Shown here in pieces: positions 1 through 14,079 of a DNA stretch of 64,000 nucleotides. The stretch's first letter is position 1. Each line of letters starts with the position of its first letter. A program made the position numbers and the translations under genes. The notes below the pieces were generated by a model. That model did not search any database and was not told the origin of the DNA. It saw only the letters and a program-made list of their open reading frames with translations. The DNA comes from Patescibacteria group bacterium (GTDB taxonomy: Bacteria; Patescibacteriota; Patescibacteriia; Patescibacteriales; UBA12465): assembly GCA_041665845.1 (NCBI GenBank), contig JBAYIC010000001.1, positions 9,531 to 73,530 on the forward strand, given 5' to 3'.

Positions 1-119
1 AAACGCTTCTCCATTTCATTCATCACTCCGCGCGAAGAAAAAGAGCCTCCGTTTTCAATTAATATCTTGAAAGCCGTCTGCAAATATTCACCGATTCTAT
101 TGTATGAAATTTTTTTCAT
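1..119 (-). CDS. hypothetical protein, N-terminal part only (ORF runs off the window start); possibly a winged-helix Mrr_N-like N-terminus
   Basis: ATG at 119 (cat at 117-119 on + strand), 16 nt after the stop of ORF 136..588. It reads MKKISYNRIGEYLQTAFKILIENGGSFSSRGVMNEMEKR with no stop down to position 1. It is absent from the ORF track because it is truncated. The domain guess rests on loose pattern resemblance only. Confidence 0.35.
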   Translation of the reverse strand, partial: MKKISYNRIGEYLQTAFKILIENGGSFSSRGVMNEMEKR

Positions 120-135
120 ATTTTTAAATTGTTTA

Positions 136-588
136 TTAAAAGCATATTCCCAAAGAAGAGCATTTATCAAATATACCTAGCATAGAAAGTAAATAAATTA
201 TTATAAAAACTAATGAAAATACGCCCCATAGCCCATAGTGTTCTTTTTTCACTTTTTTCATTAATAATCTAACTAATAAAACTAACGCAATTGTAAAACA
301 CCCAATAATACCGATAGCAATAGTGACTCCTCTCCAAAATTGGAATGACACACTAGAAGCTTGTAATAGCCAAGTAAAACCTCTCCAAAACAAAAAAATC
401 ATTAGAAAAGTTCTAATGATAAACCCTAAAATACATAGCAATTCAAACTTTAACAGTCTCCATGGAAATAAATTCTTTTTACTATTAGATAAATTAGTAA
501 TTTTACTTTCTTTGTCTATTTTTGCGCCTAAAATCTGATATCCAATCCCTTCCTCTTCTAATGTTTTATCAATTATTTTAGCGTTCAT
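136..588 (-). CDS. multi-pass membrane protein, unknown family (distal gene of the R-M operon)
   Basis: 150-aa ORF starting 4 nt after the endonuclease stop. A polar ~45-aa N-terminus is followed by 3-4 hydrophobic helices. The motif FWRGxT is duplicated (LFWRGFT, QFWRGVT). Confidence 0.5.
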   Translation of the reverse strand: MNAKIIDKTLEEEGIGYQILGAKIDKESKITNLSNSKKNLFPWRLLKFELLCILGFIIRTFLMIFLFWRGFTWLLQASSVSFQFWRGVTIAIGIIGCFTIALVLLVRLLMKKVKKEHYGLWGVFSLVFIIIYLLSMLGIFDKCSSLGICF

Positions 589-592
589 ATTT

Positions 593-1510
593 TTAAATCA
601 AACTATTTAACACCCCTTTCTCAATCATATCTAAACTAAAAATATAATCGTTGTGATTAAAGGTTTCTCTAAGCGGTCGAGAAGTACCAACCCAGCCCTT
701 GCCATCAGTGATCCAAACAAATTTGTACTGGCCGTTTAAAACATTGAATAAATCCCTATATTCACCGGCTGTTGATTTTAACTTTGAACCACCACCGCCA
801 TAAAAATTTGTTTCAAAAATTACTATATCTTTACCGGTGTTTATAACATAATCATAACGTCTAGATGATTTATCTACCGGCACGTCAAACCCCCATTCGC
901 TTTTTATTTTTTCCGATGTCGCCTCCTTTAAGTATTTAAAACCTTTAGTTTTACAAATATCGGCTATAAAGAAACCAACAATATCTTCCATAGAATGACC
1001 GCCTCTATTTTTACGGCCATTGCTATCAAGCCCGGCCTCTACGCCGATCATATAATCAACAAGATTTTTTATTTTTTGAGAAATAATTAAATCTTTAAGA
1101 CCAGTTTCTTTTACAAATAATAAATACTTTTCAATATCTTCATCTGTTACTGCCTCTTTAGAAAAATCATAGTCTTCATAAACTAGCTTTTTCTTTTTAT
1201 AATCAACTAGAATTTTAAACTTATTTGTATTACCACCATCTCTAACAACTAAGGCTGGAATAACTTTAATAATCTCTGGGTTTTGTTTAACTAAAAACTT
1301 AAACTCTTTATCAAAATCTTCTTTACCAATTAAATAATTAAGATTATTTAAAGCAATTTCAATTTTTCTGGTGTTTGTAAAAACTTTTTCCCAATTTACA
1401 AAATAAGACCAAAGCATATTGCTTGGCTTGAGATTATTTAAAAAATAATCAAATACCTGGTCCTCATTTTTACATCCCAAAACTTCATTATAAAATTTAA
1501 GTGACTTCAT
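593..1510 (-). CDS. type II restriction endonuclease, DpnII/MboI family (predicted GATC specificity)
   Basis: 305 aa. The blocks WSYFVNWEKVF, VDYMIGVEAGLDSNGRKNRGGHSMEDIV, ETNFYGGGGSKLKSTAGEY and FVWITDGKGW...LRETF match the DpnII/MboI family as I recall it. ATGA start/stop overlap with the upstream ORF. Confidence 0.78.
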   Translation of the reverse strand: MKSLKFYNEVLGCKNEDQVFDYFLNNLKPSNMLWSYFVNWEKVFTNTRKIEIALNNLNYLIGKEDFDKEFKFLVKQNPEIIKVIPALVVRDGGNTNKFKILVDYKKKKLVYEDYDFSKEAVTDEDIEKYLLFVKETGLKDLIISQKIKNLVDYMIGVEAGLDSNGRKNRGGHSMEDIVGFFIADICKTKGFKYLKEATSEKIKSEWGFDVPVDKSSRRYDYVINTGKDIVIFETNFYGGGGSKLKSTAGEYRDLFNVLNGQYKFVWITDGKGWVGTSRPLRETFNHNDYIFSLDMIEKGVLNSLI

Positions 1511-3168
1511 ATAATTTTACCTGTTTTTAAAATATTTATAAAAATATAATAAACATCAGACGCAATATCTTCGGTTCTTCTTTTCATAGCTTTTTTATAA
1601 TTCTTATCAAAATCATATTTTAGAATTAACTGATGTTCTTTGTATGGGCTTTTTTTATAAATACTAATTTTATCTTTAAACTTTGTTGGTAATTTAGAAT
1701 TTTCACTAAGCTCAAAAATAGTCAAGTTGCCAATTTCATGGATACAATCATCATCTCCATCACTTTGGCTTATGATATGCTCTATAGTGGGCTCCTTAAA
1801 CGATTTAGCGCCCCCTTTTGAAAAAACATATCTTTCTAGAATAAATTGTACGTCCCCACTTTTAGATTCTTTATAAATACTTTTTCTTGAAAAATTTTCC
1901 ACAAATTCATCGTGTCCATTCTTTACTAAACTATGCAATTCCTGAAAAAGTGTATTCACATTTTTAGATTTTGTAGCAAAACCAGCAAATATTTTTTCAG
2001 CGGAGCTTGGACTTCCTGGAACATACTTATATAGAAACTGAAAAGCGGCTAATCTATTAAGAAATTTTTTAAAATTTTCCTTACTTTCATTTTTATAAAA
2101 AAATAATACCGGGGCGTATATCTGATCTACATTTAAAAAAGAAAGGAATTCAAGAATTTCTTTAACAGACTTTATATCAAATCTTTTCCACTTTTGTATT
2201 TTGCCTAAAGACTCAACATTGGAATTTCTTATTGACACATAAATAATTGCGTCTTCTGCAAGTTCGTTAGAGTAACTTAATGAAGTAATTATTTTATTTT
2301 TACACTTATCTTCGACGTCAGAATACAGACCCGAATGACTTATGTAGTATCCCTTACTTATCCAATGATGTCGCAAAAATGTTTTAAAAAGAGCCCTGTT
2401 GTCCGCAAATATATCTTCCAATTTTTGCCAGTTGTTTTCAACTTTTGGTAATAAAGATTTATCTTTTGAAGCATTTTTAAAAAGGAAATTTTTAATTAAA
2501 TCAACGCTAGCTAGAGACATTCCGGTGGCATTGATACTTTCAAATAATTCATAGGCGATCGAATTATTTGTGCAACTTATGGCAATAACCTTTAGCGTTT
2601 TTATCTTATTTAAAAAATTTGTTATTCCTGAATCAATATTTTTACTAAATTTCTTGGTTAATTCTTTATAAATATAATTATAATTATCCAACATTCTTTT
2701 TTGTGTTTCTGTCTCGGAGGGGCCACATTCTCCTTTTAATAATTTTATATAGAAGCTATTCGTTCTTTTATCATAAAATTCTATCCTTGGACTCTTTTTC
2801 AAATCATATGAATCTACAAATTCTAAAAAGCTACTAACTTCACGTAAAATACTATCCAATTTTGTTTCCTTTTTATATTTTATTATAAAATCTCTTATTG
2901 CTATTAAAATTAACGATATAGTTATCATTCGCTGTTGTCCGTCAATAATCTCATCTCTGCCAACGGTCCCATTTGATGACAAAACAAAAACCAAACTACC
3001 AATAAAATAATAATCATTACTAGTTAAAATATCCTCAATAAACTTTTTTACTTGTTTTTTGTCTGTCCAAACATATGGTCTTTGCAATGTTGGTATCAAA
3101 TGTTTTGTTGATACCTTATCTATAATTGAAGAGTATAAATATGATCCAGCGTATATATCATTATTCAT
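1507..3168 (-). CDS. DUF262/DUF1524 protein (GmrSD-like, type IV restriction-like NTPase + His-Me finger nuclease)
   Basis: 553 aa. The N-terminal DUF262 signature is IPTLQRPYVWT ... IIDGQQRMITISLIL. The C-terminal DUF1524/HNH-like signature is TIEHIISQS ... IGNLTIFELSENSK. Confidence 0.8.
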   Translation of the reverse strand: MNNDIYAGSYLYSSIIDKVSTKHLIPTLQRPYVWTDKKQVKKFIEDILTSNDYYFIGSLVFVLSSNGTVGRDEIIDGQQRMITISLILIAIRDFIIKYKKETKLDSILREVSSFLEFVDSYDLKKSPRIEFYDKRTNSFYIKLLKGECGPSETETQKRMLDNYNYIYKELTKKFSKNIDSGITNFLNKIKTLKVIAISCTNNSIAYELFESINATGMSLASVDLIKNFLFKNASKDKSLLPKVENNWQKLEDIFADNRALFKTFLRHHWISKGYYISHSGLYSDVEDKCKNKIITSLSYSNELAEDAIIYVSIRNSNVESLGKIQKWKRFDIKSVKEILEFLSFLNVDQIYAPVLFFYKNESKENFKKFLNRLAAFQFLYKYVPGSPSSAEKIFAGFATKSKNVNTLFQELHSLVKNGHDEFVENFSRKSIYKESKSGDVQFILERYVFSKGGAKSFKEPTIEHIISQSDGDDDCIHEIGNLTIFELSENSKLPTKFKDKISIYKKSPYKEHQLILKYDFDKNYKKAMKRRTEDIASDVYYIFINILKTGKII

Positions 3169-3185
3169 AAAATTTAGAGTTAAAG

Positions 3186-4058
3186 TTATAAATTACGATT
3201 ATTATTTAAATCCCTATATCTCTTAATCGATAATTCCAGATATTTCTTCTCTAAATCAATACCAATAAATTTTCTATCATTGAGAGCGCAAGCTAAGCCA
3301 GTCGTTGAAGAACCAGTAAACGGATCAATGACTAAATCACCTTTATTAGTACTTGCCATAACAATACGAACCAATAGATCTATTGGCTTTTGGGTCGGGT
3401 GTTTGCCGAACTTCTTTTCGGTAGGCTTGGGCGTTCCCATAGACCAAACACTGCGCATTTGTAAGTTGGGCTTTTTCAAAAAATCTTCCGGCCAATTACC
3501 ATTCTTCATTAAATCATAATTGAATTTATGTTTAGTGGTTATTTGTTTTCCGGTTTTAGGGTGGACTAATTCTTTTCTCGCCCAGATTAAAGTTTCATGA
3601 CTGGCAGTAAAAAAGCGACAGCTTAAATTTGGCGAGGCATTCGGCTTAAACCACGCAATATCATTTAGGATGTGAAATTTGCTAACCTGGAGAGCAAATC
3701 CACATTGGTAAATAGAGTGATAGGTGCCAGAAATCCAGATCGTACCACCCGGTTTTAAAACTCTATGGCAAGCCTTAATCCAAGCTAACTGAAATTCAAA
3801 GTCTTTCTTTAAGCCATTACTGACGTCCCACTCACCCTTATTAACGCTGACCATACGGCCGGCGTGAACGGAAAAACCGCCGTTAGACAATAAGTAAGGC
3901 GGATCGGCAAATATCATATCAACCGAATTCTCCGGTAGAGTAGCTAAAAATTCCAAGCTATTGGCTTGGTATAATTTGAAGTCTTTATCTTTAAAAAATG
4001 GATCTAGCATTTTTTTGCTTTTTTTCTTAGTTTTTATAGCTTTTTTTAAGGTAGTCAT
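3186..4058 (-). CDS. DNA methyltransferase, beta-class N6-adenine/N4-cytosine (N6_N4_Mtase family), probable cognate GATC methylase
   Basis: 290 aa. Motif IV (DMIFADPPY) precedes motif I (VIDPFTGSSTTG), which is the beta-class order; HPTQKP is also present. The true start may be M17 (ATG at 4010). Confidence 0.85.
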   Translation of the reverse strand: MTTLKKAIKTKKKSKKMLDPFFKDKDFKLYQANSLEFLATLPENSVDMIFADPPYLLSNGGFSVHAGRMVSVNKGEWDVSNGLKKDFEFQLAWIKACHRVLKPGGTIWISGTYHSIYQCGFALQVSKFHILNDIAWFKPNASPNLSCRFFTASHETLIWARKELVHPKTGKQITTKHKFNYDLMKNGNWPEDFLKKPNLQMRSVWSMGTPKPTEKKFGKHPTQKPIDLLVRIVMASTNKGDLVIDPFTGSSTTGLACALNDRKFIGIDLEKKYLELSIKRYRDLNNNRNL

Positions 4059-4109
4059 ATTATAGCAAAGTGGATATAAAGAAAAGATAAAGTCTTATTC
4101 TCTGGCCTA

Positions 4110-4138
4110 ATTTTACGAGTTTTAGAGGAAAAAGTCAA
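4110..4138 (-). promoter_or_regulatory. putative sigma-70 promoter of the methylase-GmrSD-endonuclease operon
   Basis: On the minus strand it reads TTGACT (4138-4133), a 17-nt spacer, then TAAAAT (4115-4110). It lies about 50 nt upstream of the methylase ATG. Confidence 0.4.
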
Positions 4139-4179
4139 AGAACGGATATTTAATCAGAACCACATTTTAACTTATTTTA

Positions 4180-5577
4180 TTATCTATTCAAATTGTAAAA
4201 TTTTTTTGCCATTTCAATACTTAATAGTATATTTTTTATTGGCTTCTTAATACTTTTATAAAATCCCAATATATTATAAAGTCTATCTGAATATAAACAA
4301 TCACTAATCTCTTGATCGAGTAAACTTATGAATTTTTCTTTTTCTGCTTGATCTAAAATTGAATATATTTTTTTAAACTCAGTGGGCTTTAAAGGAGTTT
4401 TATATAAAAAATCATCTGAGATTATTAAGCCTTTTAGTCTGTTAACCGCAGGTGGGATATCAGACATTTCTCCTATAACATTTATAATTCTTTTTAGTAA
4501 ACTTAAGCCTTGTTTTCTTAATTCATGTCCGTGCGTTAAATAAAAAATAATTTGTTCATTGACAACTTTAGTATTTATTGATTTTCCATTTTTACATAAA
4601 ACAAGAAAATTTTCAAAACAAAAATATTTTTTAAACTGTTCAGTTTCCATTATATTTACTTTTTTCTGATTAAAATTTAATCCTTCACGCATAAGGAGGC
4701 TTGAGGCTTTAGAAATTATTCTTAACGCGTCTTTTTTGTTTAGCGTAAATATGATCTGATCATCAGCATATCTAAAATACATAGCGCCTTTTTTAACACA
4801 ATATCTAGCTATATTTTTATCATATTCTTGCAAATAAAAATTTGCTATAATCCGCGAACATTCTCCAAAAGTATCTTGCGGAATACCTGCGCCCTGCTGC
4901 CGATAGAAATTAATGTGTCTATTCCAGAAACGCAAAAAATGCATTAATAAATATACTATTTCGTTATCTTTATTTTTTATATATTTTCGGAGTTTGAATT
5001 CTAAATTATCTAGTTGAATGGAGTCATAAAAATTAGATATATCGAGTTCAGTTGCATAACCATATTTTACATTAGCACAATTAAAATAAAGTTTTTTGCT
5101 AAAATCATTCCATTCCGCAAACCATGCATTCGGATTTAAATTAGAAACAGAATAGCCGTCATCAGTAAAAACGAATTTATCATTATCAAATTCTACTATT
5201 TCATAGCTATCTTTTATTTCTTTAATTTCATCTTCTTCGAGCCTTCTTAATTTTCCTCTTAAACCGAAGCCCCCATAGGTGCCCGGTGTATGATTTATTG
5301 CTATATATTTTTCTAATCTTCTGACACAATAATAGTAAACGCAAAGATCATCTAGGCGAAATGATGGCACAATACGAACAACACCATTTCCTTTATTAAT
5401 TGTTATATATTCTTCCGGAGGTTTTGGATAATAATTTCTTGAGCTAATTTTACCAAAAACTTCCTCTAAAAAGGCTTTTTTATTAGCGACCTTTTTATAA
5501 GGCACAGACGATTGCTTGTTAACCCACTGCCAAAATTTTTGCTCTGAGCATACTTTAATAAAATCTGATTTAATCAT
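4180..5577 (-). CDS. reverse transcriptase, stand-alone UG/Abi-like (defence-type) with helical C-terminal domain
   Basis: 465 aa. RT motifs present: YPKPPEEYITINKGNGVVRIVPSFRLDDLCVYY (1-2), ELDISNFYDSI (A), GIPQDTFGECSRIIANFYL (B), FRYADDQIIF (C), GLNFNQKKVNI. I see no maturase X, En, Cas1 or retron VTG signatures. Confidence 0.85.
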   Translation of the reverse strand: MIKSDFIKVCSEQKFWQWVNKQSSVPYKKVANKKAFLEEVFGKISSRNYYPKPPEEYITINKGNGVVRIVPSFRLDDLCVYYYCVRRLEKYIAINHTPGTYGGFGLRGKLRRLEEDEIKEIKDSYEIVEFDNDKFVFTDDGYSVSNLNPNAWFAEWNDFSKKLYFNCANVKYGYATELDISNFYDSIQLDNLEFKLRKYIKNKDNEIVYLLMHFLRFWNRHINFYRQQGAGIPQDTFGECSRIIANFYLQEYDKNIARYCVKKGAMYFRYADDQIIFTLNKKDALRIISKASSLLMREGLNFNQKKVNIMETEQFKKYFCFENFLVLCKNGKSINTKVVNEQIIFYLTHGHELRKQGLSLLKRIINVIGEMSDIPPAVNRLKGLIISDDFLYKTPLKPTEFKKIYSILDQAEKEKFISLLDQEISDCLYSDRLYNILGFYKSIKKPIKNILLSIEMAKKFYNLNR

Positions 5578-5672
5578 ACTTTATATTTTACAGTAACAGC
5601 TATAGCAGCTTTAAACTCTATTTATTTATTTATAATAAAAACGTAAATAAAATAAACTTATCAACAATATTA

Positions 5673-6821
5673 TTATCTTAAAACATTATCTTCGTCAAAA
5701 GATAACGTTTTTGGCATAGAAATTTCTTTCATGCATTGTAAGGCATAATCATCGGTCATTCCTGATATATAGTCAACTAACAATGCTGTTGGCATATCTT
5801 GCTCTTCCTTATAAACGTCTTCATTTTTTTCTAAAAAACCACCAAAAGATTTTGCCACGCCACCTAATCCTTCATAGCAATCATAATCATTTTTATACTT
5901 TTTATATAATTCAAATAGGTGATCATACAAAGCCGAGATCATCTTATTAACGTGTTTTTTATACTTAGAAAGTGTGGCATGAAAGTATATAAATTTATAA
6001 TTAAAGTCCATCAGTTCTTTTAGTGCTTCAAATTTTTCGTTAGAAAATTTTATTCTATCGTCACTTTTTGAATTTTTTATAATATCCACAATAAAATTAT
6101 TAATTATAGATGAATTACTAAATTTGCCATCTTCATAACTTAGTTCATTTCTTACTTTATCTGGCACATCACTCTTTAATATAAATTTTCCCTTTATAGC
6201 ATCCTCCAGATCTCTTCCGAGGTAGGCTATTTTATCTGCAAACCTTACAATACAGCCTTCATATGAAGTCGGCGTCATGCTCAATGTATTTGATTTAGAT
6301 ATAACCTCAAAATCATTTTTTTCTTTTGACGGTCTAATCTCTTGTTCTAGCTTCTCGCCATTATGAGAAATAATGCCATCTTTAACTCCATATGTTAAAT
6401 TTAATTTATAAATTTTTTCCACAATCCTATACCCCTGAATTTCGTGATGAAATTCTCTACCGGTCTTTTCTTTTAGTGCTGTCTCTCCAGCGTGTCCAAA
6501 TGGAGCGTGTCCCAAATCATGACCGAGTCCAATAGCGTAAGCCATGTCCTCATTTAATTTCCAATTATTTCCGCTCTGATTTAATCCTCTGCAAATAGTA
6601 GTTGCTATAGTAGCAACGTGTATTACATGCTCTATCCTGGTACATATATGATCGTTTTGGGGGGAGAAAAATACTTGAGTTTTTTTCTTTAATCTTCTAA
6701 ACGGCATGGAATGAATAATTTTTGTTTGATCTCTGAAAAAGACTCCCCTAGGATCCGGGTCTTCGTGATATTTGTAGCTAGTTCTCTCTTGATATGCTAT
6801 TTCATTTAAAGGATTATTCAT
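5673..6821 (-). CDS. dgt: dGTP triphosphohydrolase-like HD-domain protein
   Basis: 382 aa. It carries FFRDQTKIIHSMPFRRLKKKTQVF, the HD-domain block RIEHVIHVA ... GLGHDLGHAPFGHAGE, and a C-terminal DYISGMTDDYA, all typical of the Dgt family. Confidence 0.8.
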   Translation of the reverse strand: MNNPLNEIAYQERTSYKYHEDPDPRGVFFRDQTKIIHSMPFRRLKKKTQVFFSPQNDHICTRIEHVIHVATIATTICRGLNQSGNNWKLNEDMAYAIGLGHDLGHAPFGHAGETALKEKTGREFHHEIQGYRIVEKIYKLNLTYGVKDGIISHNGEKLEQEIRPSKEKNDFEVISKSNTLSMTPTSYEGCIVRFADKIAYLGRDLEDAIKGKFILKSDVPDKVRNELSYEDGKFSNSSIINNFIVDIIKNSKSDDRIKFSNEKFEALKELMDFNYKFIYFHATLSKYKKHVNKMISALYDHLFELYKKYKNDYDCYEGLGGVAKSFGGFLEKNEDVYKEEQDMPTALLVDYISGMTDDYALQCMKEISMPKTLSFDEDNVLR

Positions 6822-6872
6822 ATATTTATTTCGAAATTCCTTTACATCATTGGTTAATAAGGGGCTAGATTA

Positions 6873-7151
6873 TTATTTTATTACTATATTATTGGAATCT
6901 TTTTCAATAACTTCTTTCATAACACTTTTATTACCATTTCTTCTATCAATATCTTCAGCCATAAAATCTTGCGCTATAGCAATTTTTTCTAAAGCGTCAG
7001 CAATTCTACTTAAAGACTGAGTATTCTCATTAATTTTCCAATACCATAAAATCAGCTCACGGATAATCAAAAAGAATACTACTACAACGGCTAACCAAAA
7101 AAGGAAAGATACTGGGCCAGGCTCAAATAATGGATTATTAAGAATGTTCAT
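6873..7151 (-). CDS. small single-pass membrane protein, unknown function
   Basis: The track ORF is 6873..7181, but its first 10 codons overlap the terminator hairpin, so ATG 7151 (MNILNNPL...) is preferred. It has one hydrophobic helix (FLFWLAVVVVFFLII) and then a charged helical tail. Confidence 0.4.
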   Translation of the reverse strand: MNILNNPLFEPGPVSFLFWLAVVVVFFLIIRELILWYWKINENTQSLSRIADALEKIAIAQDFMAEDIDRRNGNKSVMKEVIEKDSNNIVIK

Positions 7152-7172
7152 ATTTTTAAAAATTAATAAAAT

Positions 7173-7205
7173 AAAAAACAAACGAGAGCAATCTCGTTTG
7201 TTTTT
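7173..7205 (-). terminator. rho-independent terminator downstream of tRNA-Asn (bidirectional shape)
   Basis: Stem CAAACGAGA (7179-7187) pairs with TCTCGTTTG (7192-7200) around loop GCAA. It is flanked by an A-run (7173-7178) and a T-run (7201-7205). Confidence 0.6.
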
Positions 7206-7860: not shown

Positions 7861-9249
7861 TTAATAATCCCTCAACTTTTCTAAGCCCTTAAACTTCCTA
7901 ATTTTCTCTAGAGCTTTGGATTCAATTTGACGAATACGTTCACGGGTAACTTCAAATTCCTGACCGACTTCCTCTAAAGTATGAGCAACTCCATCAACTA
8001 GCCCGAAACGCATCTCAAGTATTTTCTGTTCACGCGGTGATAACTGAGCAACAATTGCTTTAACATAATCACGTAGTAGTTGTAAGGCCGCCGCCCTATC
8101 TGGAGAAACATTTTTTACATCTTCAATAAAATCTTCAAGGGTTGAATCTTCTTCATCATCACCAATAGTTGTCTCAAGAGAAATTGTATCTTGAGAAATC
8201 TTCATGATATATCTAACCTTATCTAATTCCTCTCCCATTTCCGCCGCAATTTCATCCGCTAATGGTTCGCGTCCTAATTCTTGAATTAAATTACGTTGAA
8301 CTTGTTGGAACTTATTAATCGTTTCAACCATATGAACCGGAATACGGATTGTACGAGATTGATCAGCGAGCGCTCTGGTAATTGCTTGTCTTATCCACCA
8401 AGTTGCATAAGTTGAAAACTTAAAACCCTTACGATATTCAAATTTTTCTACTGCACGAAATAAACCAATATTTCCTTCCTGAATTAAGTCCAAGAGACTC
8501 ATACCCTTTGCGCCGGCAAATTTCTTAGCAATTGAAACAACCAAACGCAAATTAGCTTCAATAATTTTCTTCTCGGCTTCTTTATCGCCCTTTTCTTTTC
8601 GTTTTGCAAGTTCCGTTTCCTCTTCTCCAGTTAAAAGTGGAACTTTCCCAATCTCCTTCAAATACATTTGAATGGAATCAGCACTTAATTTCGATAAATC
8701 AACTTGTAAAGCATTTTGATGAGCAAGTGCCCGTCCAGTTAAAGCTGGTTCCGCCGCCTTTTTCTCGGCCGTATCTAAAATTCGACCAGAATCCTCTGCA
8801 ATTCTAATTCCATTTTTCTGTAAATCACCTAAAAAAACATCATATTCATAAACATATTCTTCGACTTCCGGGAAAAGATATAATAATTCTGTTTCGGTAA
8901 TAAAGCCACGCATTCTTCCTTTATCAATTAGCTTTTTCAGTTGTTCTTCGGTTGGTCTTACAACTTCATGCGGCGCTTCTTTAACTTTTATTCTAACCGG
9001 TTTAGCCGACTTTAAAACCTTCTTTGCTTTAGGTGCTAATTTCTTAACTGAAATTTTATGAGCAATCTTTGATTTAACAATAGATTTAACAGCCCGTTTA
9101 ATAATCGGCTTCTTCACTGAAGTTGATTTTTTCGTTTTAACAGCCTTAGCTACCGTCTTTTTTATAGTCTTTTTAGATACATTATTCATTTTTTTAGTTT
9201 TCTTTTTCGGCGGCCTAGCTGGCTGCTTCTTTGGCTGTTTTTTAGCCAT
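7861..9249 (-). CDS. rpoD: RNA polymerase sigma-70 factor RpoD with Lys-rich N-terminal extension
   Basis: Region 2 ([39 protein letters not shown]), region 3 and region 4 ([15 protein letters not shown] ... [20 protein letters not shown]) are all present. Confidence 0.95.
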
Positions 9250-9254
9250 ATGTT

Positions 9255-11102
9255 TTAAATTAGTTTTTTTAACTCATCAGTCGCGCTCTTGAGCTCACTC
9301 ATAAGTTGTTCCATTTTTTCTCCACCGCCTATCTCCTGATTACCTTCTCTTTCAGCGGCAACCATCGCCTTCTCTAATTTCTTAATTTTTTTCTGATAAC
9401 TATATTTTTTAAGCTCCATTACAATCTTAGTTATTTCCGATTTTGCTTCTTCTTGATTATGAGCATAGAAATCTTTTTCGCCAAGTAGTATAAGCTTATT
9501 TAAAAGTTTTTCTAGTCCCGGTTCGTTCTCTTCTAAATATTTATTAAAATTATCATAATCAAACAAAGTAGACTTATTATAATAGATAATTAAGGTCTTG
9601 TAAAACCTAGAATTCTCTTCCGGATAGGTTTGACTGGGGTCTAAGCTTTCTAAACTATAGGCAATAAACTCGGGAAATTTAATAATAAGCGCTAGAAATA
9701 ATTCGGATAAAAGTTCTTCTCTAAGCAAGGGTCTGATAATCGGTGCTCCAGGTAGATTATTTTTCATTCCCGCTCTAGCAAAGTCTGGTTTTTTTGCTTT
9801 TTGATATTTTTTAAATTCTTCTCTAATATCAGGTTCGGAAAAATCTAATTCTTCACTCGTTTTCTTGAGCCAATAACCTTGTTCGGAATCATTAAAGACT
9901 AAATCAATCATCGCAAACATTTTATCTCTCACAATAATTTTATTATCCAATTTCTCTAAATCCAAATCAGCGCTTATTTTTCCAAAATAATATTCTAACA
10001 TCGGCTTAGCTTCCTCAACCGCCTTCTTAAAATCATCAGGATTATTTTTCAAGCAATCATCTGGATCCTTACCATATGGGAGGGTAATTACTTTTAAATT
10101 CATGTTTTGAGCAAGAGCTTCTTTAATTCCCCGATCAGCCGCCATTTGTCCGGCATCATCCATATCAAAAGCTAAGGCTAAGTTATTGGTAAATCGCTTA
10201 ATCAAAGTTATCTGTTCGGTTGTTAAAGCGGTTCCAGAAGAAGCGACAACATTTACAAAACCATGATTATGACAAGCAATCGCATCCATCTGGCCCTCAA
10301 CTACAATCGCTAAATCTTCTTTTCTAATCGCATTCTTCGCATAATTTAAAGCAAATAAAATTCTACTCTTATCATAAATCTCGGTCTGCGGGCTATTAAT
10401 ATACTTCCCCATTTTTTCCGTCTTTTCTTTTTCGGGATTAACGCGCGCGGTAAAGGCAACAATGTTATTATTTACATCCCAAATCGGAAACATAATCCGA
10501 TCACGAACCCTATCATAATAATTGCGACCACCGCTAGTTGATGCTTCTTTTTTAATAATTAACCCCGCCGCTAAAATTTCTTCATCGCTATATTTACTTC
10601 CAACAATTGGTCTTTGACGTAAAAAATCATACAAAGAGCTCCAACTATCTGGACTATAGCCTAAGTTCCAATCGGCTATCGTTTCCTCTTTTAAGCCTCT
10701 TTCTAATAAATATTCTTTCGCTTTATATCCGGGGGCGGTTTTTAAAAGATGGGCATAATATTTTCCTGCTAACTCCATGATATCTAAAACGCGATTACGC
10801 TTAGAAAATTTTTCCGGATTCTCATGTTTTAAAGTAACATTCGCTTTAGGCGCTAAAAGTCGCAAAGCTTCCATAAAACTTAAAGCCTCCTTCTCCATTA
10901 CAAACGTAAAAACATCACCACCGCGACCGCAACCGAAACAATGCCAAATCTGCTTATCGGGAGAAATTACAAAAGACGGCGTCTTTTCATTATGAAAAGG
11001 ACAGACCGCTTGGAAGTTAACGCCAACCGCTTTAACCGGGACATATTCCCTAATAACTTCCACAATATCTAATTTTGACTTTACTTCTTCACTATCTGAC
11101 AT
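9255..11102 (-). CDS. dnaG: DNA primase DnaG
   Basis: Zinc-finger block [35 protein letters not shown] and a TOPRIM region (VVEGQMDAI ... FDMDDAGQ). Confidence 0.93.
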
Positions 11103-11137: not shown

Positions 11138-11467
11138 CTAAACGAAAAATTCGGGCAACAGGAGGCTCTCTAAACGCCTAGCCTCACTTTCTACCACTTC
11201 GCCGTCATACTCGGCGTTATGGCGACTCTGGCCGGCATATCCAGGTCGTTTTTGATCAAGATGCAGATTGAAAGTTACAAATACCTCGCCCTTACTATCG
11301 GCTTGTTCAATAAAATAAATATGAAAACGAGGATAAAAATCGCGCGATAAACGTCTAGCAAAACTCATTTGGCCATCTTCTTTTTCCGGAATATAAACAT
11401 AGCCAGCGCTTCTAAGCCAAATTTCCGGCGTTTCCTGTAATTGTTTCTTGCGAGCAATTATTTTCAT
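11138..11467 (-). CDS. hypothetical protein
   Basis: The track ORF is 11138..11521. ATG at 11467 (MKIIARKK...) is preferred, and it still overlaps the GtrA-like ORF tail by about 56 nt. No motif recognised. Confidence 0.4.
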   Translation of the reverse strand: MKIIARKKQLQETPEIWLRSAGYVYIPEKEDGQMSFARRLSRDFYPRFHIYFIEQADSKGEVFVTFNLHLDQKRPGYAGQSRHNAEYDGEVVESEARRLESLLLPEFFV

Positions 11468-11930
11468 CTTTTTTTGTTCTAAAAACAATAAATTTATAAA
11501 CGAAAAAATTATAAACACCAATCATCACATTAACAATTACTTGGGCGAGTAAGTACCAAATCCCAAGCTTGTTTGCTAGTAGATGCATTAAAAATCCATT
11601 AATATTCAAGCCAATAAAAGCATTTCCGATATATAGTACGAATTGGACGGGAATTCTCTTCTGGCTATAATTTCTAAAAGTCCAAAATTTCTGTAAAGTA
11701 AAGCTAACCGCAAAGGATAAAATAAAGGCTAAACTGGTCGATAAGACTAAATTCCACTTAAAAATTCCATGGAAAAGAAAGAGAAAAACCAAATCAACTA
11801 ACGCCGCGGTGCTACCGGCGAAAAAGAACTTTATCACCGATTTGCGTTTTTCGCAAGTATAAAACAGTCCAGGATAACGGGTAGAAAACAAGTTTTTGAA
11901 CTGAAGATATAATCTATTTATCACTGGCAT
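11412..11930 (-). CDS. GtrA-family membrane protein
   Basis: 172 aa with four TM helices. FFFAGSTAALVDLVFLFLF ... YKFIVF is the GtrA-like pattern. Confidence 0.6.
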   Translation of the reverse strand: MPVINRLYLQFKNLFSTRYPGLFYTCEKRKSVIKFFFAGSTAALVDLVFLFLFHGIFKWNLVLSTSLAFILSFAVSFTLQKFWTFRNYSQKRIPVQFVLYIGNAFIGLNINGFLMHLLANKLGIWYLLAQVIVNVMIGVYNFFVYKFIVFRTKKDENNCSQETITGNAGNLA

Positions 11931-11944
11931 AACTCAATACTAGC

Positions 11945-12814
11945 TTACTTTTTAAAATAATTATCAAACACCCAGGCAATTAAAGCTTTGCTCTCTTTAA
12001 AACGATCATTTTTACCAGAACTATTTAAAACCGCAACAATTAAATCTTCGCCATTTACTCCTTTGAATCGGCCGACGAAACAATACCCTGCTTTATCAGT
12101 ATAACCGGTTTTGCCTCCAGTCGGTTCAAAATCGGTTTTAGCAGAATCAAACAATAAATAATCGGTTGATTCAATTATTTTTTCTCGTCCTTCAAGTGTT
12201 TGAAATTTATATTCTTTAAGATTTGCAGCATCGCTTATTTCTGGATTTTCCAAAGCTTCCTTAGCTAGCAGAGCAACTTCTCGGGCGGTTGAAACATTAT
12301 TATCACTTAGCCCAATCGGATCAGAAAATGAAGTATGATGCAAATCTAAACGCGTTGCTTTTTCGTTCATTTTTTTAACAAAATCTCGTTCGCTCATTCC
12401 TGAAGCATGGACTAAAGCAATTGTTGCTCCGTTATCTGACGCAATTAAACTAGTAAGCAATAAATCTTTCAAATTAACATTATCTCCTAAAAAAAGATTT
12501 AATTTCCCGCCGGAAATACTATCGGCCGTTGTTATTTGATAACTTTTATTCCAATCGGGTTTTGTATCAATAAATACTAAAGCCGTCATTAATTTAGTAA
12601 TACTGGCGATTGGCTGTTTCACATCAGCATTTTTATTAAAGAATAGAAAACGTCCGTCTTCAGAAAGAACTGCCGCTTTATCGGCTAAGACAATTTGATT
12701 AGCCCCAACTGGAATCAGCGAAATAATTTTCGCATCTTGATTCGTTATCGCCGGTATACCGTTACCAGCAAAAAACAAGATTAATATAAAATTTATAAAA
12801 AAGTTCCAAATCAT
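11945..12814 (-). CDS. D-alanyl-D-alanine carboxypeptidase (S11 penicillin-binding protein)
   Basis: SxxK (ASITKLM), SxN (ASDNGA) and KTG (GGKTGYT) motifs plus an N-terminal signal/anchor. Confidence 0.85.
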   Translation of the reverse strand: MIWNFFINFILILFFAGNGIPAITNQDAKIISLIPVGANQIVLADKAAVLSEDGRFLFFNKNADVKQPIASITKLMTALVFIDTKPDWNKSYQITTADSISGGKLNLFLGDNVNLKDLLLTSLIASDNGATIALVHASGMSERDFVKKMNEKATRLDLHHTSFSDPIGLSDNNVSTAREVALLAKEALENPEISDAANLKEYKFQTLEGREKIIESTDYLLFDSAKTDFEPTGGKTGYTDKAGYCFVGRFKGVNGEDLIVAVLNSSGKNDRFKESKALIAWVFDNYFKK

Positions 12815-13350
12815 TTTATTTCTTCTAAAACGGCGGCTAATTCTTCCGACTTATTTAATTTTTTATAATCAGGCAAATCATTAACGCTCCCAATCCCTAA
12901 AAATCTAATAAAATCCAAACTAACATTATAATAATTTTCGTTTTTTGTTTTTTCAAATTTTTCTTCAATTAATCCGCGGATAAGCAGATTGCGAATTATT
13001 AAACTACAATTTATACCTCTTATTTTTTCTAATTCCAATTTACTAATTGGTCCGCGATAAGCAATAATAGTTAAAGCTTCTAGACTAGGTTGCGATAATT
13101 CACCGCTGGTTTCACTTTTTAGAAATTCTTTAATTAAAGCGGCATTATCACTAGCCGTTGTAATTTGATATTGGCCATTATTTTTAATAATTGCTAAACC
13201 GCTACCGGCTCTCTCATAATCTTCAGTTAAGGTTCTTAGAACCTCTTCGATTTCATTAGTCTTAGCGTTAGTTAAAGCCGCTAATTCTTTTAAAGAAAGC
13301 GATTTAATAGAAACAAAAAGTAAGGATTCTAATTGGGATTTCAAAGTCAT
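12811..13350 (-). CDS. scpB: segregation and condensation protein B
   Basis: 179 aa. LESLLFVS start and tandem winged-helix pattern; directly follows scpA. Confidence 0.85.
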   Translation of the reverse strand: MTLKSQLESLLFVSIKSLSLKELAALTNAKTNEIEEVLRTLTEDYERAGSGLAIIKNNGQYQITTASDNAALIKEFLKSETSGELSQPSLEALTIIAYRGPISKLELEKIRGINCSLIIRNLLIRGLIEEKFEKTKNENYYNVSLDFIRFLGIGSVNDLPDYKKLNKSEELAAVLEEIK

Positions 13351-13353
13351 ATT

Positions 13354-14079
13354 TTATTGCTTATTACTTGTTATATGTATTTCACTAAACAACTCGTCTT
13401 GTTCAAAAATAAGTTCCTTCTGCTTGGCTAATTCTAAGACTGCTAGAAAACTAACAATCATTTCAGTTTTATTGGTTGCCGCTCTTAAAAGTTTAGAAAA
13501 ATTTACTCTTACTTTATCAAATAACATTTGTCTAATGAGTAAGATTTTTTCCTCGATATTCATTTTTGGCTCTAACTTTTCTTCTGGTAATTTTTCTTCA
13601 TTCCGCTTGGCTAAATCAGCTAATATTTTTTTGAACTGTTCTAACAAAATAAGCGCAGTTACTTTGGTCGGCGGAGAAAAAGTTGGTTCAACTATTGTTT
13701 GAATGCGGCGACTTTTTGTTATCGGTGGTAAATATAAAAATTTTTCTTGAGCAATTATATCTTTTATCTGGCGGCTCGCTTCAATAAACTCCTTATACAT
13801 TCGTAATTGCTTTTCTAAATCATCCCCTTCCTCCTCTTCGGTATCAGTGTACAAATAAGGAAGAAGCGCCTTTGATTTGATATACAATAATTTAGCGGCG
13901 ACTACTAAAAAATCGGCTAATTCTTCCGGATCAATATTTTCCGCCGCTCTAACATAAGCGACATACTCATCGGCAATTTTTGCTAAATTAATTTCCGTTA
14001 TATCCATCTCCTCGCTTTCAATCAAGGAGAGTAAAAGCCCCAAAGGACCAGAAAATTTTTCCGTTGTGAATTCAATCAT
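13354..14079 (-). CDS. scpA: segregation and condensation protein A (kleisin)
   Basis: FSGPLGLLLSLIESEEMDITEINLAKIADEY is a typical ScpA N-terminus. Confidence 0.88.
   Translation of the reverse strand: MIEFTTEKFSGPLGLLLSLIESEEMDITEINLAKIADEYVAYVRAAENIDPEELADFLVVAAKLLYIKSKALLPYLYTDTEEEEGDDLEKQLRMYKEFIEASRQIKDIIAQEKFLYLPPITKSRRIQTIVEPTFSPPTKVTALILLEQFKKILADLAKRNEEKLPEEKLEPKMNIEEKILLIRQMLFDKVRVNFSKLLRAATNKTEMIVSFLAVLELAKQKELIFEQDELFSEIHITSNKQ

Follow-up and report, generated by a model that had tools for sequence, protein, structure and literature searches.

A 64,000-nucleotide (nt) stretch of DNA from a Patescibacteria group bacterium (GenBank assembly GCA_041665845.1, contig JBAYIC010000001.1, positions 9,531 to 73,530 of the forward strand), hereafter the window, was analyzed for the defence genes at its 5' end. 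This end is very probably the start of a co-directional defence array, whose core is a DpnII-type restriction-modification (R-M) cassette for GATC with an embedded DUF262-DUF1524 nuclease, and which belongs through this core to a recurrent family that spans bacteria and archaea. The genes are ordered DpnA-like methylase, nuclease, DpnII endonuclease (R.DpnII). Nucleases of the DUF262/DUF1524 type are among the commonest genes of defence islands. To our knowledge, only two modes of action have been described for them, namely type IV restriction (GmrSD, BrxU) and phosphorothioate sensing (SspE, DndI).

The methylase gene (3186..4058, minus strand, as are all genes of the array) encodes 290 amino acids (aa) with DPPY and FTGSSTT motifs and matches PF01555 (N6_N4_Mtase, 3.3e-54) and the PADLOC model MTase_II (2.3e-90). 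The protein is 46% identical to M.LlaDCHIB of pSRQ700 over 264 aa and is predicted to be a beta-class N6-adenine methyltransferase of the DpnA/LlaDCHIB type that acts on GATC. The 305-aa product of the endonuclease gene (593..1510) matches PF04556 over 277 of 278 profile positions (2.8e-91) and PADLOC REase_II (1.2e-89). It shares 40% identity with R.LlaDCHI of pSRQ700 over 304 aa and is probably a type II enzyme of the DpnII/MboI/LlaDCHI family with GATC as its target. Among the 4-nt palindromes of the window, GATC shows the strongest depletion (125 observed versus 195 expected, a ratio of 0.64), which is consistent with long-term GATC restriction pressure. GATC specificity is thus supported by this depletion and by the 40-48% identity to LlaDCHI proteins that is found for the endonuclease, the methylase and the D12 methylases of related cassettes (45-48% to M.LlaDCHIA). 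The original prediction of a DpnII-like operon, made from the window alone, is borne out by these comparisons.

In its DpnII-family endonuclease, its DpnA/LlaDCHIB-type methylase and its tight same-strand operon the cassette resembles the classical DpnII and LlaDCHI systems (dpnM-dpnA-dpnB of S. pneumoniae; pSRQ700 of L. lactis), and its relatives share a DpnM/LlaDCHIA-type methylase with them as well. However, the layout of pSRQ700 is M1-M2-R, with two methylases, an endonuclease and no DUF262 gene, whereas in the window a 553-aa DUF262/DUF1524 gene lies between M and R. Classical cassettes combine an alpha- and a beta-class methylase, whereas only the beta-class enzyme is present in the window; a Pfam search for a D12 (alpha, DpnM) methylase in the window's array found none. 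Most related cassettes also differ from the classical layout, as they show the order M1-G-R-M2 (G, nuclease) with an M2 from a different N6_N4 subfamily of about 250 aa. This M2 (positions 8558-9310 of locus L007, 7556-8317 of locus L106, and equivalents) is not DpnA-like, and its likeness to M.LlaDCHIB is confined to a local stretch of about 58 aa. A true DpnA-type methylase is carried by the window and by loci L005, L090, L091, L096 and L098.

The relatives of the nuclease form a sharply bounded group of about 70 proteins with 38-89% identity, beyond which identity falls to about 30%. Their contexts were read via exact-protein look-ups, a scan of metagenomes with an alignment of clade-specific fragments, and our own annotation by open reading frames (ORFs) and phmmer, which gave 22 distinct informative loci (the window and 21 independent ones). 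A DpnM-like (D12) or DpnA-like (N6_N4) methylase lies in the cassette with the nuclease in 22 of 22 loci, with an intervening recombinase in one of them. Recurrence of the arrangement at 21 further independent loci places the gene set far beyond chance, and the adjacency in the window is not a one-off. The hosts named in the records include bacteria (Patescibacteria/Paceibacterota, Peregrinibacteria, Ignavibacteria and a gammaproteobacterial metagenome-assembled genome, MAG) as well as the archaeon Nitrosarchaeum. At loci L105 to L108 the four cassette genes stand amid housekeeping genes, and the cassettes are therefore discrete units. No clade members were detected on viral contigs or PLSDB plasmids, where the best match had 30% identity. 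The scans of catalogued plasmids and viral contigs thus gave no support for a presence of the cassette on known phages or plasmids, and this fits the restriction of the clade to uncultivated lineages.

Gene order and partners vary considerably within the family. The commonest order is D12 (M1, DpnM-like), nuclease, R, N6_N4 (M2), while the window, L090 and L091 show N6_N4, nuclease, DpnII. In the window and 15 other loci the nuclease gene stands between those for M and R, all on one strand, and in three loci it stands at the cassette edge; M-G-R, M-R-G and G-M-R orders all occur, and the adjoining methylase is of the alpha or the beta class. Same-orientation nesting between system genes, which Payne et al. 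(2024) used as "guilt by embedding", is found in the window. The R slot is occupied by four unrelated families of type II restriction endonucleases, namely DpnII, MutH-like, PADLOC PDLC03457 (about 200 aa) and DUF6996/DUF6997 (PDLC03513). All of them match PADLOC models for type II endonucleases, and the four families are interspersed on a neighbour-joining tree of the nucleases. As endonuclease family, gene order and methylase class all vary, the constant partner of the nuclease is the GATC-methylation function and not one protein. The start/stop overlap that had been taken to argue for obligatory co-expression is real but not conserved. Positions 1507-1510 of the window read tcat, which corresponds to ATGA on the minus strand, so that the nuclease stop and the endonuclease start do overlap. 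However, this overlap is peculiar to the genome of the window: the corresponding gaps in relatives range from about 2 to 52 nt, the latter in L090, which is 89% identical. Conservation thus extends to the tight same-strand packing and not to translational coupling.

In L098 an otherwise typical cassette is interrupted by a large serine recombinase gene (2457-3800), which is inserted in convergent orientation and separates the nuclease from the two methylase genes. In L116 the nuclease and DpnII genes are separated by a chimeric ORF of 79 aa (6698-6937), which joins the N-terminus of a DpnII protein to the C-terminus of a D12 methylase and looks like the deletion scar left by a tandem pair of GATC cassettes; upstream of this cassette lies a small HTH_3 gene, possibly for a controller protein.

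The conserved embedding invites the idea that the nuclease is an accessory or guard of the R-M system, which acts after or upon failure of the type II enzyme, either by degrading DNA from GATC-cut ends or through a PrrC-like release by phage anti-restriction. Such a role would agree with the exclusive embedding, with the constant presence of the endonuclease and with the tight same-strand packing, and PrrC is a precedent of a near-exclusively embedded guard (bioRxiv 10.1101/2024.01.29.577857). However, a guard that relies on specific protein-protein contact fits poorly with neighbours that comprise four unrelated endonuclease folds and two classes of methylase, and homologues acting in this way are not known. 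We therefore regard this role as unlikely.

A control set of other DUF262 contexts was obtained by a genome-contig scan with the full clade alignment, which carries generic DUF262 motifs; it comprised 80 loci among the matches listed, all with at most 31% identity. The two most similar of these 80, L010 and L011, have the GATC cassette and are outer clade members. Among the matches listed, an adjacent D12, N6_N4 or DpnII gene was found at 0 of 78 non-clade DUF262 loci. The 89 same-strand flanking ORFs from 70 control loci represent 134 Pfam families, headed by ResIII, Eco57I/MmeI-type methylases, N6_Mtase, HsdR and PglZ, and the 25 commonest of these families include no D12, N6_N4 or DpnII. 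These neighbours correspond to the promiscuous contexts of DUF262 genes in type I R-M and bacteriophage exclusion (BREX) systems that have been described before (PMC4619093). Since the control loci are devoid of GATC-cassette neighbours, the uniform GATC context is a property of the nuclease clade of the window and not of DUF262 proteins generally. At another locus, L112 (11595-13548), a gene of the EcoRI_methylase family extends into the start of a gene for a 364-aa DUF262 and HNH protein. This pair looks like a two-gene R-M unit and is relevant to the idea of methylation-coupled DUF262 nucleases.

The embedded gene itself (1507..3168, 553 aa) matches Pfam GmrSD_N (6.9e-34) and GmrSD_C (6.8e-11), both above the gathering score. 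One chain combines an N-terminal DUF262 domain, a ParB-like nucleoside triphosphatase (NTPase) with the motif DGQQR, with a C-terminal DUF1524 domain of the His-Me/HNH type (EH...N...N). In an alignment of 46 clade members D76-G-Q-Q-R80, E463, H464, N481 and N490 are invariant, and the catalytic motifs of the DUF262/DUF1524 gene seen in the window are intact. These NTPase and nuclease residues match those that are essential for defence in HEC-06, in which mutation of Q79, R80 or the E-H motif abolishes it (bioRxiv 10.1101/2024.01.29.577857).

Such conservation bears on the possibility that a DUF262 gene entered a mobile GATC cassette once and was co-inherited without interaction, or that it serves as a DndB-like regulator. 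Defence genes are known to cluster and nest through mobility and co-regulation (PMC4619093; bioRxiv 10.1101/2024.01.29.577857), traces of recombination are seen within the cassettes (the serine recombinase of L098 and the chimeric scar of L116), and the nuclease gene is frameshifted or fragmented in L102 and L103. However, the NTPase and HNH residues are invariant although identity within the clade has fallen to about 30-40%, the adjacency persists through endonuclease swaps and reordering, and "escaped" copies account for 0 of 22 loci. Moreover, the protein is a full-length enzyme of 553 aa, unlike the single-domain DndB. Passive co-inheritance or regulation is thus improbable, and a DndB-like regulator as the principal interpretation was ruled out by the full-length protein and its invariant nuclease residues.

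Homology searches place the nuclease closer to modification-sensing enzymes than to the type IV enzyme BrxU. The best PADLOC model is HEC-06 (PDLC04154, 1.6e-62), which is matched at full length over residues 20-538, followed by Orf5 (2.9e-50), since renamed DndI (PMC4198939), and by SspE and mREase_IV (about 1e-11). The mREase_IV match is weak and N-terminal only (8.9e-11). A search of the PDB with the single sequence gave no matches; profile and fold searches were informative. The clade profile matched DndI best (9JFL, 6e-30), then a 2026 DUF262 entry and then SspE, and BrxU did not reach 0.01. With an AlphaFold2 model of the nuclease (mean confidence, pLDDT, 88), Foldseek aligned DndI at full length (2e-14, template modelling (TM) score about 0.6), SspE at 4.5e-11 and BrxU at 8e-4 with a TM score of 0.3. 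The closest characterised relatives are HEC-06, DndI and SspE, whereas BrxU is more distant.

Each of these relatives shares part of its setting with the nuclease of the window. HEC-06 (Payne et al. 2024, bioRxiv 10.1101/2024.01.29.577857) has the same DGQQR motif, with identical numbering of Q79 and R80, and the same E-H motif, and it is likewise embedded in the same orientation within a multi-gene modification-based system. However, HEC-06 is a single-gene defence found in Hma systems, whereas the window nuclease adjoins a type II methylase and a DpnII endonuclease and its clade is confined to type II GATC R-M. DndI and SspE (PDB 9JFL; 6JIV/7DRS) are the closest solved structures. They are NTPase-gated nucleases encoded beside the genes that make the mark they read, and act as restriction partners of this modification module. 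Phosphorothioate on self DNA is sensed via the DUF262 domain, upon which NTPase activity rises and the enzyme lets go of self DNA, whereas phage DNA that lacks the mark is nicked (PMC11662687, PMC9646914). Only about 20% of the residues are identical between these proteins and the window nuclease, which adjoins modification genes for base methylases; the called genes of L001, the contig that continues the window, and of the other 21 loci include neither dnd nor ssp genes. BrxU in BREX (pEFER) and RloF in Campylobacter type I R-M are GmrSD-family genes that are also nested in the same orientation in a modification-based operon (PMC8565348, PMC4619093). However, genes of the BrxU and RloF kinds are found in many different host systems and also on their own, whereas the host of the window's clade is type II, and BrxU is the most distant solved relative.

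We tentatively favour the reading that the embedded protein provides a second restriction arm, which tolerates self DNA by virtue of the N6-methyladenine (m6A) that the cassette places in GATC, although the probability of this reading lies somewhat below even. The methylase would set m6A on GATC, and R.DpnII would cut unmethylated GATC. The embedded protein, produced off the same transcript, would act as a His-Me/HNH nuclease driven by nucleoside triphosphate (NTP) hydrolysis through its DGQQR motif. Host DNA would be spared thanks to the same GATC methyl mark, by the logic of phosphorothioate self-sensing in DndI and SspE; it is above all this coupling to m6A that is drawn from analogy. One modification would then serve two mechanistically unrelated executioners, and a phage that inhibits or escapes the small type II enzyme would still be attacked. 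The second arm is favoured because the context is exclusive, because the link survives endonuclease replacement and reordering, and because of the homology ranking. The GATC cassette is present at 22 of 22 clade loci versus 0 of 78 non-clade loci among the matches listed, which supports dependence. PrrC, which is near-exclusively embedded in type I R-M, is a precedent for such functional dependence (bioRxiv 10.1101/2024.01.29.577857). Near-exclusive embedding therefore points to functional dependence as for PrrC, DndI and SspE, whereas BrxU-like genes occur in many contexts. With somewhat greater reserve, the whole clade may be regarded as a base-methylation-coupled effector, the m6A(GATC) counterpart of DndI and SspE, in which GATC methylation would license both a type II endonuclease and an NTP-gated HNH nuclease.

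Several points weigh against this dependence on m6A. We know of no DUF262 protein that reads m6A, and embedded GmrSD-like genes are usually read as a type IV complement, as in the case of BrxU. DndI Y25 and SspE Y30, which form part of the P-x-Y-Q-R patch (PMC11662687), align with the clade-invariant L28 in a profile alignment. Since the sensor tyrosine thus aligns with an invariant leucine, a sensor of the phosphorothioate type is ruled out, and any modification sensor of the clade would differ from the known one. HEC-06 alone, without its native neighbours, protected E. coli, a Dam+ host (bioRxiv 10.1101/2024.01.29.577857). The classical endonuclease is kept at every locus with both flanks visible, and the nuclease never replaces it. 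In addition, sampling began from the nuclease side only, most loci are metagenomic, and the neighbour-joining tree of the nucleases carries no support values.

Nearly as likely as a methylation-coupled arm is an independent type IV complement, in which the nuclease would follow the logic of BrxU in BREX and cut modified-base phage DNA that escapes GATC restriction, for example with hydroxymethylcytosine (hmC) or glucosyl-hmC. The gene would be co-expressed and co-transferred with the cassette, and methylation would not be needed. This is suggested by the GmrSD-family domain architecture and motifs, by the weak mREase_IV match (8.9e-11), by the ability of HEC-06 to work as a single gene and by the invariable presence of the classical endonuclease. 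Published GmrSD-like genes in BREX, Hma and type I R-M act on modified DNA (PMC8565348; bioRxiv 10.1101/2024.01.29.577857; PMC4619093). Furthermore, an Mrr gene follows the cassette in three lineages (the window, L007 and L010), and the Mrr of Nitrosarchaeum and the gammaproteobacterial MAG belongs to a lineage unrelated to that of the window, with 25% identity. This suggests selection for a pairing of type II and type IV enzymes, although the repeated juxtaposition is indistinguishable from island clustering. However, a type IV complement leaves two observations unexplained, namely the confinement of 22 of 22 loci to GATC cassettes, while other DUF262 lineages are promiscuous, and the survival of the link through endonuclease replacement and reordering. 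BrxU, moreover, is the most distant of the solved relatives. The type IV-like activity against modified DNA in the original prediction was an assumption, and the nearest relatives are HEC-06 and the self-sparing DndI and SspE, with BrxU farther away.

The ORF list and the raw sequence reproduce all coordinates and spacings first given for the array. Five minus-strand ORFs are separated by 17 nt (methylase to nuclease), the ATGA overlap, 4 nt and 16 nt, and the cassette genes are probably co-transcribed. Terminator-like hairpins were sought between the array genes and none were found. A promoter-like TTGACT-17-TAAAAT motif (4110..4138, minus strand; score 10/12) is present, as first described, within the 121-nt gap upstream of the methylase gene. 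However, such matches occur at chance frequency in the AT-rich DNA of the window (44 versus 39 +/- 7 in shuffles), so that the motif is plausible as a promoter by its position only. The guanine-cytosine content is 26-35% in the defence island versus 32-38% further along the window.

Two further ORFs follow the endonuclease gene. The first (136..588), 4 nt after it, encodes a protein of 150 aa with hydrophobic segments at about 45-71, 84-113 and 116-146, and thus three predicted transmembrane segments. No family match was obtained for it in Pfam, PADLOC or NCBIfam, and 5.8 billion proteins included one homologue, in L109. The second starts at 119, 16 nt after the membrane protein gene, and leaves the window after 39 codons (1..119). 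It was completed on L001 (10470-11351), an ENA metagenome contig from an exact-protein look-up with 1 mismatch in 10,587 nt relative to the window. The 293-aa product matches Mrr_cat (1.4e-17), Mrr_N (6.2e-10) and PADLOC PDC-S02 (1e-36). The domain matches identify it as an Mrr-type enzyme with an Mrr_N winged helix and a PD-(D/E)XK catalytic domain (Mrr_cat), and the winged-helix protein suspected at this position is therefore real. The view that the membrane and winged-helix proteins are components of the cassette did not hold. In L109, from a related Patescibacteria genome, the same site downstream of dnaG-rpoD carries the membrane protein gene, a pair of small ORFs and an Mrr gene with 80% identity, and no DpnII cassette is present. 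In L090, which has the cassette closest to that of the window, the R.DpnII gene is followed by a gene (3809-4606) for a 265-aa protein with N-terminal transmembrane segments and a NERD-like nuclease motif, in place of the membrane protein and Mrr. Both are therefore island neighbours, although they are probably co-transcribed with the cassette here.

On the continued minus strand, 12 nt after the Mrr gene, L001 encodes a 749-aa protein (11364-13613) with invariant D38...E47-x-K49, DxxGxG and NPPY. Sequence searches of Pfam, PADLOC and PDB gave no match, while more than 3,500 homologues exist, of which the top 120 (50-85% identity) are all named "hypothetical". In the fold search, an AlphaFold2 model (pLDDT 82.5) matched the type IIG enzyme BpuSI best and then gamma-class adenine methylases, and homologues occur stand-alone (L112 to L115). 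The protein looks type IIG-like and may represent a large unannotated family of single-chain R-M enzymes.

On the other side of the cassette, directly upstream of its promoter region, a gene at 4180-5577 (minus strand) encodes a 465-aa reverse transcriptase with a YADD motif that matches the defence-associated class RT_UG13b of PADLOC (1.5e-129). It is preceded by a gene for a dGTP triphosphohydrolase-like HD protein (5673-6821, minus strand; PADLOC dGTPase 2.2e-55), which matches both housekeeping and anti-phage models of NCBIfam, all below the equivalog cut-offs. Beyond these two genes lie rpoD and dnaG. The membrane protein, Mrr, the 749-aa enzyme, the reverse transcriptase and the dGTPase are separate residents of one defence island. 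The region downstream of dnaG-rpoD (about 1-7200 in the window) differs in gene content from that of L109, with which only the membrane protein and Mrr are shared, and behaves as a variable defence hot spot.

The original prediction named no described system with the arrangement of the window, but the general phenomenon is published. GmrSD-like genes have been reported as embedded in type I loci (RloF), in BREX (BrxU) and in Hma systems (HEC-05 and HEC-06) (PMC4619093, PMC8565348, bioRxiv 10.1101/2024.01.29.577857). Full-text literature searches that combined DUF262 with DpnII or GATC turned up only reviews that name both separately, and no account of a clade tied to GATC cassettes of type II. 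The new part thus appears to be the dedication of a nuclease clade to type II GATC cassettes.

A lineage that occurs only in GATC cassettes and spans bacteria of the candidate phyla radiation, other phyla and an ammonia-oxidising archaeon offers a clean test of m6A as a self mark. If the coupling to m6A is false, the cassette is still a compact natural pairing of type II and type IV restriction, which PADLOC-style tools report as two unrelated systems. If it is true, the annotation of embedded DUF262 genes as "type IV" would have to be reassessed in many cases, and a second restriction arm would be added to type II R-M systems. The modification-sensing mechanism of DUF262 proteins would then be extended from backbone sulfur to ordinary base methylation, and the cassettes would form a class of hybrids that stand between type II R-M and host-dependent restriction of the Dnd/Ssp kind.

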